Virus record (IMG/VR): IMGVR_UViG_3300038679_000051
Coordinates: 96,001-160,000 of that record
DNA: 64,000 nt
From: a virus
Lineage: Duplodnaviria > Caudoviricetes
Direction: 5' to 3' (one strand)
The position numbers and the translations under genes were made by a program. The first letter of the stretch is position 1; every line of letters starts with the position of its first letter. The notes under the pieces are model-generated. The model was not told the origin of the DNA. It worked only from the letters and a program-made list of their open reading frames with translations, and did no database searches. Of this stretch, positions 1-24,905 are shown piece by piece.

Positions 1-429
1 CAGGAGAACCAGATCACGTTCCAAATCTTGTGGGATTGATTTGACCGGGCTGAGACAAATCAGCATCTTCTGTTGCGATTTGAATTCCCGACAGATGTCC
101 CTGATCATGCGTCTGACTTTTGGCATTTCAAAGAAGGGATGTATGTCCCGGAAGACATATACGACGCCATCGCTTTCAGTATCGTCGAGCGCTTTTTGGA
201 GGGCACCCACTGGATCATCCAATTCCTTGTCCTTCTCTTCTTCTTTCCATTGGCCTTTGACGTAAACCTCTTTGAGCCAACCTTCAGAGTGTGACCAGAA
301 GGTGACTTTGCGATTCAATTCTTTGGCAGCATCCAACAACATCAATTCGGCACGACCCTCTTCGGCCGTCTGCAGATAAATTGCTGGATATCCGGCACGC
401 ATGTAATTTGCCAAATTCAGTTTGCTCAT
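1..429 (-). CDS. Ycf46-like AAA ATPase, N-terminal part (runs off the window start; not in the ORF track)
   Basis: Manual translation from ATG at 429: MSKLNLANYMRAGYPAIYLQTAEEGRAE...VYVFRDIHPFF...VRRMIRD...LICLSPVKSIPQDLERD. This matches the N-terminus of Ycf46-type ATPases; the start overlaps the stop of the 426-764 ORF. Confidence 0.75.
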   Translation of the reverse strand, partial: MSKLNLANYMRAGYPAIYLQTAEEGRAELMLLDAAKELNRKVTFWSHSEGWLKEVYVKGQWKEEEKDKELDDPVGALQKALDDTESDGVVYVFRDIHPFFEMPKVRRMIRDICREFKSQQKMLICLSPVKSIPQDLERDLVLL

Positions 430-14736: not shown

Positions 14737-14759
14737 GTTATCCTCCTTTCGATTAGGCT

Positions 14760-14816
14760 CCCATTAGGGGAGAAAATCCTCCCCTTTCATTCCTGCCACG
14801 GAAATCATCAGATGGG
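14760..14816 (-). ncRNA. Type I hammerhead ribozyme (HH-D) with an atypical U-U at the base of stem II
   Basis: CCCAU CUGAUGA UUUCC-GUGGCA-GGAAU GAAA GGGGAG-GAUUUU-CUCCCC UA^AUGGG. Confidence 0.8.
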
Positions 14817-15107
14817 CAAAGATGAGTGATAAAACTGAAGAACTAAATGTCCTTGTACTTCTTCACTGACCAGACCGTTTTCCAGCGGCGGATTGACGTC
14901 GTTCGAGAAATTTGCAAGGTGTCCATCCGGTACGGAAACGATCGAACAATGTGGATAACCGCTGCCAAAGTCTAAAGCAATTTTTCTTGCTTCTTCTTGA
15001 TTGAGATGTCCTGGAAGGACGATCGGCTTCACATCATCGTCGAGTCGTCCTTCCATGGTTGGAACTACGATGGTAACATTCATTTTGTCAGCGATCCCCT
15101 CGGTCAT
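14808..15107 (-). CDS. Hypothetical protein whose stop codon lies in the HH-D core
   Basis: Ends ...CCC ATC TGA TGA. Confidence 0.55.
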   Translation of the reverse strand: MTEGIADKMNVTIVVPTMEGRLDDDVKPIVLPGHLNQEEARKIALDFGSGYPHCSIVSVPDGHLANFSNDVNPPLENGLVSEEVQGHLVLQFYHSSLPI

Positions 15108-21604: not shown

Positions 21605-21806
21605 CCAAATGCCTCATCACTCATCGCATTCCCTCCCAATCATCGAAACAATCCCGTTGTTGGTGTTGGTTGAAGAACCCTTTAAGTGCGTGTAAGAGGC
21701 TTGATTATCGCAAATATATTATATATTTTAATTATTTCACTAATAGGATATTAACAGCTTGCTAATGCTTACTTAATAGCTCCCGTATGCGACCCTAATG
21801 CACATA

Positions 21807-22081
21807 GAGCAAGCGTTGACGCTCATTGTGCAGCTCATTGTGCACTGACTTATTGCACACCGAGCAAGCGTTGACGCTCATTGTGCATCAATACGTTCTG
21901 GGTTAGTTTGAACCAGAACAAAGAAAACCGCTATCCACATTTAAGATGCTCCGGTTTTCCCGGCTACATTTTACGTGGAAATCACCCAATCTAACGCTTG
22001 CGGCGTTAGCTCTAAGGGTGACTTGTTGCGGCAAAACGTTGACGCTCATTGTGCATCAATACGTTCTGGGTTAGTTTGAAC
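21807..22081. repeat. Direct-repeat cluster: perfect 45-bp repeat (21869-21913, 22037-22081) and 26-bp repeat (21807-21832, 21862-21887)
   Basis: cgttgacgctcattgtgcatcaatacgttctgggttagtttgaac occurs twice and contains the last codons and stop of the receiver-like gene. Confidence 0.9.
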
Positions 22082-22384
22082 TGGATCACACCGAACCAAC
22101 TCGGTAACACTAATTCTGATGTACCCCATTGCCACTAACGCACGAGCGATGTTTTCTCTCCCCACTGGATTCATAGTTACTAATACGACCGCTTCTGGTT
22201 GATAGGCAGGATTTTGTTCCAGCCAATTGGTTATATCATATCCCGTCTTCTCCTCACCTAAATCGTGGTCCAAGTACAGGACATCCCAGGGACCATTCTG
22301 TAATGCCACAATTCCGTCATCATATGTTCTGGCTGTGCGGTGGACGGTCATTACTCTTAAATCATCAATCAGAAGCATTTTCAT
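22046..22384 (-). CDS. Stand-alone divergent receiver domain of the cyclic-phosphate-processing (cREC) type
   Basis: LLIDDLR...ARTYDDGI..L....DVLYLDHDLGEEKTGYDI.NWLE...VT.NPVGRENI; the LDHDLG motif typifies this jumbo-phage family. Confidence 0.75.
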   Translation of the reverse strand: MKMLLIDDLRVMTVHRTARTYDDGIVALQNGPWDVLYLDHDLGEEKTGYDITNWLEQNPAYQPEAVVLVTMNPVGRENIARALVAMGYIRISVTELVRCDPVQTNPERIDAQ

Positions 22385-22800: not shown

Positions 22801-23145
22801 TCATTTCTCCTTGATCGTTTTATCACAATGCCAGTAACAATCATCACCTTGTTGGAGATTCCAAACACGGAATGATACTGCTTTAAATGACGGTTTGCCG
22901 TCGACTCCTGGTCGAGCAGCATTTTCGAAAACGCCCACAGGGACTTTCAAGATGTAATTCAGTGCAGCAGCAGGATTGACAACAACTACACCTTCGTACT
23001 CCTCATCTTTATCACCAGCAGCAGTTTCACTGAATGCATCCTCATCACCAACGTGGACCAACTCGATGCGAAGCTGGTCTGCCAACTGAATCTGATCCTC
23101 GGTCGGTACATGTCTTGAAATGAATGCGAATCTCTTTTTTCTCAT
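22801..23145 (-). CDS. Hypothetical protein
   Basis: FAFISRHVPTEDQ..LA...GVVVVNPAAAL...VGVFENA.R motif; SD GGGAGG upstream. Confidence 0.6.
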   Translation of the reverse strand: MRKKRFAFISRHVPTEDQIQLADQLRIELVHVGDEDAFSETAAGDKDEEYEGVVVVNPAAALNYILKVPVGVFENAARPGVDGKPSFKAVSFRVWNLQQGDDCYWHCDKTIKEK

Positions 23146-23253
23146 CTCTCCCTCCCTTTCGTTTGGTGGATGTTATTTGTGGGGTTTCTACATATACAAG
23201 CCTATTGTCATATCTGACCGATTTCGGGGGATATAACAACATATACGTTTCTA

Positions 23254-23439
23254 TTAGATGACATCATAACCGTTGAGGAAGATAACACCATCACCGCGAC
23301 GAGCACGACGGTGTGCAGCTTTCTTCAGCTGCTTTTTGATTTTCTGAGAACAACGGGTCTTCGCACGACAAGACCATGACCACTTCCAGTCGTTGGAGAA
23401 ATATTCCTTCTCTACGATCTTGCTGGTGCTTCGACGCAT
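23254..23439 (-). CDS. Small basic protein inside the inverted-repeat segment
   Basis: SD GAAAGGAGG just after the HH-G cleavage site. Confidence 0.55.
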   Translation of the reverse strand: MRRSTSKIVEKEYFSNDWKWSWSCRAKTRCSQKIKKQLKKAAHRRARRGDGVIFLNGYDVI

Positions 23440-23466
23440 GCCACACCTCCTTTCAGTTTGGTGGCT

Positions 23467-23523
23467 CCCATTAGGGGAGGTTTCCCTCCCCTTTCGACCG
23501 TGCCACCGGTCTCCTCAGATGGG
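23467..23523 (-). ncRNA. Type I hammerhead ribozyme (HH-G)
   Basis: CCCAU CUGAGGA GACCG-GUGGCA-CGGUC GAAA GGGGAGG-GAAA-CCUCCCC UA^AUGGG. Confidence 0.93.
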
Positions 23524-23956
23524 CTGCAGCACCCTAGCTTCTTCCTGCACGCGGGTTCTCTTCGGCTTACTGGGGTACTTTGCATATGAACCAATCCAAT
23601 GAAGAGTTGGTTCATGTGCTTTTCCCCCATCTTCAGCAGCTAGTTTCGGTCGAGGGCTTTCGACCGTTGTGCGGTGCTGCATTCTTATTTTTTACGAATA
23701 TCGCATAAGAAACCTCCTTCTTTAATTGTACCGGGATCTACGGTCAGGAGCACAAGCATATTTTGCCTCCCAGTATCTAATGGCTCCCTCCGGACTGGGT
23801 CTTAATTCACAAGAATGTCGCACCTCCTTTCTTGGTTTGTATGTTCATCGGCAATAAAAGCGTATATGTTGCTATATCCCCCGAAATCGGTCAGATATGA
23901 CAATAGGCTTGTATATGTTGCCACCGGGGATGATTTATTGTCCCCGGTGGCACAGG

Positions 23957-24199: not shown

Positions 24200-24287
24200 T
24201 AGGATCACAATGATCCCTGGGTAGACAACCCTCTTTGTGGAAGGTTGTCTACCGAGGGATCATACCCTCGGCGGGCTTTCACCCGGT
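24200..24287 (-). other. Multi-hairpin intergenic RNA structure including a 21-bp stem
   Basis: Arms 24210-24230 and 24243-24263 pair at 20 of 21 positions; flanking CGGGU-GAAA-GCCCG hairpin. Confidence 0.7.
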
Positions 24288-24291
24288 GTGA

Positions 24292-24507
24292 CTAGTCCTG
24301 CGAGGCTTCCCATTCAACTTCACCCAACGGGAAGGGTCCGAACCCCTTGGTACAGACATGGGTCTTTTCTCCCGCACCCATGACATAGCTGATGACCCGA
24401 TCCGCCGTTTCTCCGGCAATACGGATCTTGTCACCTTTCTTGAGATTCGCACCAGCCGCTCCCACTTTCAAGCTGCCCGTGTCGTTGTTCGTCACTTTGT
24501 TCGCCAT
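24292..24507 (-). CDS. Small beta-barrel (SH3/KOW-like) protein, paralog 2
   Basis: MANKVTNNDTGSLKVG...KGDKIRI...THVCTKGFGPFPLGEVE; SD GGGAGGUG upstream. Confidence 0.7.
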   Translation of the reverse strand: MANKVTNNDTGSLKVGAAGANLKKGDKIRIAGETADRVISYVMGAGEKTHVCTKGFGPFPLGEVEWEASQD

Positions 24508-24577
24508 TCTACACCTCCCTCTCAAATTAGAAGATTATCGTCGGGTGAAACACTCACCTTACGAAACCTTCTGGTTT

Positions 24578-24639: not shown

Positions 24640-24846
24640 TTATTCAGCCGAGAACTCGACCTCACCCAACGGGAAGGGTCCGAACCCCTTGGTACAGACA
24701 TGGGTCTTTTCTCCCGCACCCATGATGTAGCTGATGGTCCTGATCTTGTCCTCGCCAGAAATCCGGATTTTATCCCCGACCTTGAGGTTTTCCCCGGCTT
24801 TCCCCACTTTTAGGGACCCCGTGTCGTTGTTGAGTACCTTCGCCAT
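24640..24846 (-). CDS. Small beta-barrel (SH3/KOW-like) protein, paralog 1; first gene of the leftward block
   Basis: Near-identical to 24292-24507; its stop abuts HH-H stem I. Confidence 0.7.
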   Translation of the reverse strand: MAKVLNNDTGSLKVGKAGENLKVGDKIRISGEDKIRTISYIMGAGEKTHVCTKGFGPFPLGEVEFSAE

Positions 24847-24905
24847 AGTAGTATCTCCCTCTCTCAGAAAAACCAGACGAGCAGGCCAGCCGACCAGCCA
24901 GTCGG

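Follow-up and report, generated by a model that had tools for sequence, protein, structure and literature searches.

A near-perfect inverted repeat around a predicted hammerhead ribozyme and a small gene in a phage operon: a candidate RNA processing stalk

The locus and its inverted repeat

The complete phage record IMGVR_UViG_3300038679_000051 comprises 320,399 base pairs (bp) with direct terminal repeats; in the window analyzed here, a stretch of 64,000 nucleotides (nt) corresponding to positions 96,001-160,000 of that record, a long inverted repeat encloses a predicted hammerhead ribozyme (HH-G) and a gene for a basic protein of 61 amino acids (aa). The genes around the repeat are all on the minus strand, in an operon of small accessory genes that begins near 24,850 and runs leftwards for a length of 16 kb. 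Both arms lie outside coding sequence, within untranslated spacers of this one co-directional operon. Along the transcript the order is: 68-aa gene, hairpin, left arm, first and second Shine-Dalgarno sequences, RNA domain, hammerhead, leader, 61-aa gene, right arm, leader and 114-aa gene. The features, with positions in the window, are the following (ORF, open reading frame):

24163-23957, minus strand: 68-aa gene, the first upstream neighbour of the left arm
23922..23951, minus strand: hairpin whose 10-bp stem is G+C-rich and which lacks a U-tract, located after the 68-aa stop codon and before the left arm
23853..23925 (core 23861-23918): left-hand arm, the 5' arm of the transcript, in the untranslated spacer past the 68-aa gene and its hairpin
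23692..23830, minus strand: region of two Shine-Dalgarno sequences, at 23823-23830 and 23713-23720, each followed by a very short ORF (2 and 4 codons, respectively)
23802-23810, minus strand: 2-codon ORF GTG AAT TAA, after the first Shine-Dalgarno sequence
23692-23706, minus strand: 4-codon ORF ATG CGA TAT TCG TAA, after the second; the TAA is retained in strain L005
23526..23682, minus strand: putative RNA domain of ~157 nt with a multibranched fold, adjoining the ribozyme on its 5' side, from folding z-scores
23467..23523, minus strand: predicted type I hammerhead HH-G, from descriptor and local fold; predicted cut between 23472 and 23471
between the hammerhead and the 61-aa gene, minus strand: 32-nt leader with a strong Shine-Dalgarno sequence
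23254..23439, minus strand: gene for the 61-aa basic protein, with a strong Shine-Dalgarno sequence; small phage family, no Pfam assignment
23183..23255 (core 23190-23247): right-hand arm, the 3' arm of the minus-strand transcript, from the stop codon of the 61-aa gene to 42 nt before the 114-aa ATG
23146..23187, minus strand: 5' untranslated region of the 114-aa gene, which resembles the stretch after the hammerhead and is read as a junction duplicate
22801-23145, minus strand: 114-aa gene, downstream of the right arm after a 42-nt leader

The initial annotation of this locus had described a 58-bp inverted repeat with 57 matching bases and no evident target-site duplication. Direct alignment recovers the former exactly (23190-23247 against the reverse complement of 23861-23918, 57/58 bases identical, sole mismatch 23236/23872) and extends it further, to 66 nt with 63/66 bases matching (95.5% identity; 23190-23255 / 23853-23918) or 73 nt with 67/73 matching (92% identity; 23183-23255 / 23853-23925). 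The next 35-40 nt inward and outward of the arms align about as well as shuffled sequence (p 0.2 and 0.35), and hence the repeat is a unit with sharp edges; likewise, by comparison with shuffles, its extension into the end of the 61-aa gene is not significant. The flanking letters, ...GGGGTTTCT and TGCCACCGG..., offer a direct repeat of never more than 1 nt, so that the absence of a target-site duplication also stands. Each arm is a quasi-palindrome, in which the 12-bp half-sites TATTGTCATATC and GATATARCAACA surround a 15-nt asymmetric spacer with a small CCG/CGG stem, and is bounded on both sides by the 8-nt word ACATATAC.

When the genome is compared with itself by minus-strand BLAST, this emerges as the sole near-perfect inverted repeat with separated arms in the 320,399 bp, the remaining inverted matches being local hairpins or diverged paralogous genes. 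A search of the complete genome for more copies of the arm, which had been put forward as a check on mobility, returned exactly two occurrences, namely the arms themselves. Further, 14-mers of the arm, with up to two mismatches allowed, are found elsewhere in the genome no more than by chance, no arm sub-motif recurs in it, and no origin of the arm in coding sequence or in a recurrent genome motif was found. An exact scan of viral, metagenome and prokaryote genome collections, from which near-identical records may be absent, likewise returned no further copy of the arm core.

Independent contigs of the phage (L003-L009) were retrieved through exact-protein look-ups. In all four assemblies that cross an arm (L003 with both arms, L006 with the left, L004 and L005 with the right), the orientation is the same as in the window, and the mismatch alleles remain with their flanks in every assembly. 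Three Logan contigs have their start exactly 30 nt into the right arm, where a k=31 graph would break on meeting a repeat, implying that both arm contexts are present in those samples too. At least two strain types and ~6 samples contain the repeat in unaltered form. The samples with this phage are JGI 3300037048 and 3300039302, ENA ERZ28594924, and SRA SRR13051709, SRR11844737 and SRR12918151. In strain L005, which is 97.7% identical, the right arm and the adjacent untranslated region show no changes over 110 nt; the upstream 212 nt, by comparison, carry 5 substitutions and 2 indels. Clustering of the proteins at 90% identity leaves each cluster with one member and adds no strain variants.

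Two further observations concern these contigs. The first 14 nt of L004 (JGI 3300039302) read as the beginning of the 114-aa gene in reverse complement (window 23134-23147, plus strand) and are joined to the ribozyme core (23519-23523, minus strand) at a CATCT microhomology; the end of L006, a contig of that sample, falls at this very position. The joint represents a minor inverted-junction variant or else a library chimera. Separately, a 48-bp direct repeat (21866-21913 / 22034-22081) is 98% identical, noncoding and strongly folded (z -6.6 for 21801-22100); the strains L004 and L007 are without the DNA between its copies, a deletion polymorphism by repeat recombination.

The ribozyme, the RNA domain and the gene between the arms

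The ribozyme that the initial annotation had placed inside the repeat, HH-G, is by its sequence a type I hammerhead with predicted self-cleavage. Its elements are a 5-bp stem I (CCCAU/AUGGG), CUGAGGA, a 5-bp stem II with a GUGGCA loop, GAAA, and an 8-bp stem III that opens with an A-U pair, with a UA cleavage site and an A before the cut; it thereby has the conserved core (CUGANGA ... GAAA, the A15.1-U16.1 pair and a non-G at the cleavage site), and its local minimum-energy fold is the canonical three-way junction. The predicted cut is 32 nt upstream of the 61-aa ATG. A hammerhead descriptor run on the genome detects six sites, all on the minus strand and within 15 kb, as against none in 20 shuffled genomes; among these six copies stems II and III differ in sequence with their pairing retained, i.e., they covary. 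Together with its untranslated region, HH-G is ~75% identical to 14742-14820, with the same CCCAU/AUGGG stem I, which marks it as a paralogue within the phage's own junction ribozyme family. In strain L005 the sole change in HH-G is at N7, the free position of the core. No match to the Rfam hammerhead (RF00163) was obtained with the window, a 2.2-kb region or, even at E<=10, a 91-nt stretch. However, the Rfam type I model gives the hammerhead of L020, a contig discussed below, merely 18.8 bits, below its gathering score of 34; this weak match indicates that its silence on HH-G reflects low sensitivity to short-stem copies.

Hammerheads leave 2',3'-cyclic phosphate ends. A search of the genome found neither an RtcB nor an Rnl2-type RNA ligase encoded by the phage. 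As an observation on its own, a stand-alone 112-aa protein encoded at 22046-22384 (minus strand), 1.1 kb downstream of the ribozyme, matches the Pfam family cREC_REC, a cyclic-phosphate-processing receiver domain (E 3.6e-19).

Phage and prophage transcripts are on record with several hammerheads placed around individual genes or small groups of genes, and a role in the processing of long phage transcripts has been proposed for them (Perreault et al. 2011, PMC3088659). The present locus is akin to those arrays in that at least six type I hammerheads, HH-G among them, lie co-oriented at the gene junctions of its operon. In contrast, no long inverted repeat around a hammerhead is described there, and the copies in the present phage are too divergent for the Rfam type I model.

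Of all 300-nt intervals between 20.3 and 25 kb, the one at 23401-23700, which takes in the stretch just upstream of the ribozyme, is predicted to fold most strongly (z -7.9), and the local fold there has a z of -6.5. In strain L005 a C>U change and a 3-nt insertion enlarge the closing helix of the ~157-nt RNA domain in this stretch from 9 to 13 pairs. A 55-codon ORF (23515-23682) overlaps it and ends in Pro-Ile-TGA within the ribozyme core; this ORF has no homologue, no gene call in any collection and no paralogue in the genome. Going by the fold predictions, we treat the stretch as a structured and putatively noncoding RNA domain. Further upstream, the two strong Shine-Dalgarno sequences had been said to precede only vestigial ORFs, and with 2 and 4 codons these are vestigial indeed.

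The 61-aa basic ORF, also noted earlier, has both of its differences in strain L005 at synonymous positions, and an exhaustive HMMER search recovers four relatives of 47-60 aa with the common motif W..AW..R.KTR...LKK.AHR.ARRGDG.IRLNG.DVI; it is thus a real gene. The protein has no match in Pfam, PHROG or NCBIfam, the Atlas offers only unnamed phage clusters and a low-confidence model, and a tblastn search with it returned no relatives of the locus. One of the relatives is encoded on L020, a G+C-rich and otherwise unrelated phage fragment, where a type I hammerhead at 239-298 (plus strand; CUGACGA, GAAAC and a GUC site) is situated directly between the stop codon of the upstream gene and the gene for the relative (332-502). 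Hence, the combination of a ribozyme and a 61-aa-type gene looks like a recurrent functional arrangement. In another phage contig (L016), a palindromic hairpin of 13 nt, TCGGCCNGGCCGA, recurs at 1190-1203, 1399-1411 and 1898-1911, on either side of the relative of the 61-aa gene; one copy begins at the stop codon of the relative, and a ~50-nt direct repeat covers the upstream junction.

Inversion, mobility and DNA looping

For the repeat as a whole, the initial annotation had entertained an invertible switch, a mobile element and a long RNA duplex. The first two of these, the switch and transposon readings, are not supported. A recombinase, which it had not seen in the window, is missing from the complete 320-kb genome as well, as judged for the serine, tyrosine, DEDD, Y1 and TnpB families: there is no match to Resolvase (PF00239), Phage_integrase (PF00589), DEDD_Tnp_IS110 (PF01548), Y1_Tnp or the TnpB zinc-ribbon, and for the large-serine Recombinase (PF07508) there is only a match at chance level, of 15 bits and interrupted by an internal stop. 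By the yardstick of the initial annotation, with one orientation at the level of assemblies, no other copies and no recombinase, a static repeat is what is left.

This bears directly on inversion, which would have to proceed by RecA-dependent flip-flop or through an unrecognised or host-encoded site-specific recombinase, and would silence both the ribozyme and the 61-aa gene, with a possible block of the operon. The quasi-palindromic arms, with their 12-bp half-sites and 15-nt asymmetric spacer, do resemble recombinase core sites. Moreover, a full-length RecA is encoded elsewhere in the genome, beyond the window (L013; G000:C1:180747-181520), as a 366-aa open frame with an E of 2e-107 to Pfam RecA, and 66 bp exceeds the usual minimal homology for recombination. 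Given this bona fide RecA, a small flipped minority of molecules is plausible. However, the flipped orientation occurs in no contig, and the mismatch alleles stay with their flanks throughout. Nor would the flipped strand expose a promoter or a plus-strand ORF with a ribosome site, and inversion could thus only silence the contents. A terminator-like hairpin with a U-run (23315-23332, plus strand) would face the operon once inverted, but terminator-like sites are no commoner here than in shuffled sequence. Taken together, we regard it as improbable that the segment is invertible.

Known invertible DNA segments include Gin/gix of phage Mu, Cin/cix of P1, Hin/hix of Salmonella and fimS. As in those systems, inverted repeats bound a segment in the range of 0.3-3 kb, and the arms have an imperfect dyad like a recombinase site. 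Unlike those systems, the present locus has neither a recombinase nor a promoter or alternative gene ends inside, keeps one orientation in all assemblies, and has arms two to seven times longer than the known sites.

A second alternative is that a non-autonomous mobile element carried in the ribozyme and the gene, either as a miniature inverted-repeat transposable element (MITE) with the arms as its termini or as a composite of two tiny palindromic elements. The enclosure of a small and largely noncoding segment by terminal inverted repeats is indeed what MITEs present, and the 8-nt word on both sides of each arm might be taken for the boundary of such a palindromic unit. However, MITEs would be expected in multiple copies with target-site duplications and a cognate transposase, whereas here there are only two arms in the genome, no exact copy in the three collections scanned, no target-site duplication, and no IS110, Y1 or TnpB family in the phage (DDE families were not searched individually). 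Further, the contents are native to the phage: the enclosed hammerhead and untranslated region are paralogous to its junction ribozymes (the ~75% match to 14742-14820), and the G+C content of the interior does not differ from that of the flanks, with no sign of compositional foreignness. We therefore consider mobility very improbable.

Repeated intergenic stem-loops are known from the PeSL promoter/stem-loop cassettes of T4-type phages, which are substrates for recombination that shuffles gene cassettes (Arbiol et al. 2010, PMC2839356). Like these, the unit described here is an intergenic stem-loop in a region rich in small accessory genes. In contrast, PeSLs are multi-copy elements in direct orientation with a consensus sigma-70 promoter, whereas this unit has two copies, inverted, and no promoter with acceptable spacing.

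Finally, the quasi-palindromic arms and the small, very basic protein encoded between them might suggest paired DNA operators that loop the DNA, possibly when bound by that protein. To this reading we give hardly any weight, the least among those considered, since an operator needs ~15-20 bp as against the 66 bp of identity, no arm sub-motif recurs in the genome, and the relatives of the 61-aa protein occur without such sites; further, no DNA-binding fold or family was detected for that protein, its Atlas model being of low confidence.

The arm duplex as a candidate processing stalk

A consensus scan detected no sigma-70-like promoter, and none with acceptable spacing, between or within the arms, and the terminator-like sites between them are weak only (over the whole region, 5 were found vs 3.8 expected from shuffles). 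With no promoter and no convincing terminator intervening, both arms likely reside on one polycistronic transcript, and in that case the arm duplex should, by the folding models, form in vivo. The predicted duplex between the arms as RNA has ~-122 kcal/mol, vs ~-19 and ~-20 kcal/mol for the local hairpins of the right and left arms, respectively. When a 791-nt transcript is folded, the arms are paired end to end, with a minimum free energy of -347 kcal/mol and a z of -17. At 66-73 bp, the helix formed by these complementary segments of what is probably one transcript is well in keeping with the two or more helical turns of a stalk. The apical parts of the two local arm hairpins are mutually complementary, which provides a route to nucleate the arm duplex. 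Thus, of the long RNA duplex looping out the ribozyme that had been envisaged at the outset, the pairing is physically plausible, given its energy and the location of both arms in spacers of one operon, and any function for it is putative.

Against this backdrop, we tentatively favour the interpretation that a discrete stem-loop unit of 66-73 bp has been duplicated in inverted form, and that the resulting fixed repeat acts as an RNA processing stalk around the ribozyme and gene module. A near-perfect duplex of 66 bp is a textbook substrate of RNase III. Briefly, the mechanism might be as follows. The arms of a shared transcript would pair into the ~66-73 bp duplex and loop out a 597-nt module comprising the two dead-end ribosome sites, the ~157-nt RNA domain, the hammerhead and the 61-aa gene. 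The host RNase III would then cut the duplex and free the module from the neighbouring messages, after which the hammerhead would split it into two RNAs: (i) a structured noncoding RNA with a 2',3'-cyclic phosphate end; (ii) a short monocistronic 5'-OH mRNA for the 61-aa protein. In its complete form, i.e., a two-step RNA excision cassette whose stalk and internal hammerhead jointly yield a ~380-nt structured noncoding RNA and the 5'-OH mRNA, with the uncut stalk tethering both products, this proposal appears rather unlikely.

The closest precedents are the RNase III stalks that flank the 16S and 23S rRNAs in bacterial rrn operons and the RNase III sites in the early mRNA of phage T7. In these too, complementary sequences hundreds of nt apart pair and loop out a structured RNA unit for cutting free. 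The present duplex differs in being 66-73 bp long and near-perfect, as opposed to roughly 20-30 bp and imperfect, in enclosing an mRNA and a ribozyme rather than rRNA, and in occurring once in the genome; its cleavage is a prediction.

Several observations weigh against a stalk function. First, no comparable stem surrounds any other gene or ribozyme unit of the 16-kb operon, and the repeat is therefore not part of a systematic processing design. Likewise, no long inverted repeat is found around the four relatives of the 61-aa gene, which makes it an addition specific to this phage, and only one of the four is preceded by a hammerhead, without a repeat. Second, the pairing energy is -122.4 kcal/mol for the sense strand vs -123.7 kcal/mol for the antisense, with 2 vs 1 wobbles, i.e., there is no sense-strand wobble bias as a sign of selection at the RNA level. 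Third, the phage has no RNase III gene, so that cleavage would depend on the host enzyme, and each arm is able to fold alone. Fourth, no diverged related phage with the locus emerged from blastn against phages, protein-guided scans with both flanking genes or hammerhead-family scans. The comparison with related phages by which presence or absence was to be judged accordingly reached only near-identical strains, which keep the same orientation. Lastly, the sharp edges and the 98% identity of the arms fit a recent neutral duplication equally well.

Such a duplication is the main rival to the stalk. It posits that template switching or illegitimate recombination during cassette exchange copied the 66-73 bp stem-loop unit in inverted form, leaving a neutral scar with the RNA duplex as a by-product, and we deem it quite possible, albeit less so than the stalk. 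The edges and the identity suggest one recent event, and the repeat is unique in the genome. The vicinity has other junction duplications, namely D4, a direct repeat with 70% identity (23151-23187 vs 23446-23482), and D8, and the 48-bp direct repeat with its deletion in L004 and L007 attests to repeat recombination nearby. However, the other known scars of the genome are direct duplications and not inverted ones. The inverted joint of L004 at the CATCT microhomology does indicate that inverted joints arise here, be it in vivo or in library preparation. Against neutrality, a phage encoding RecA should invert or lose such a repeat, yet this one is unchanged across the strain types and samples noted above. 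Moreover, even if its origin was neutral, the RNA duplex would form anyway, with consequences.

The selective value of the stalk that we tentatively favour is a matter of inference. In a phage with its own RecA, inverted homology of 66 bp makes the locus prone to recombination; that the repeat persists across strain variants is a hint of either selection or a recent origin. Were the duplex functional, a single phage operon would combine protein-dependent cutting of a stalk with ribozyme self-cleavage and produce a discrete noncoding RNA whose ends come from two different mechanisms, and would offer a testable case for accessory-gene expression in huge phages. If it is only a scar, it would mean that inverted as well as direct duplications arise in the cassette-exchange regions of this genome, and that such a repeat can persist in a phage with its own RecA.

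The remainder of the operon around the repeat has further features of note. The 114-aa protein belongs to a widespread unnamed family of ~97-aa proteins that has no counterpart in Pfam; its ~100 relatives, 40-58% identical, come from both phage-like and bacterial contigs, and no synteny was seen around them in two long contigs inspected. Upstream of the repeat, the spacer between a 77-aa gene and the 68-aa gene contains a hairpin at 24210-24263, its stem 24 bp long and its loop 6 nt, which is a candidate RNA-processing or stabilising element of the same operon. Beyond it, two tandem paralogous small genes (24292-24525 and 24640-24846, minus strand) have a hammerhead between them, and are accompanied by DNA repeats that are 95% and 70% identical over ~80 nt each.

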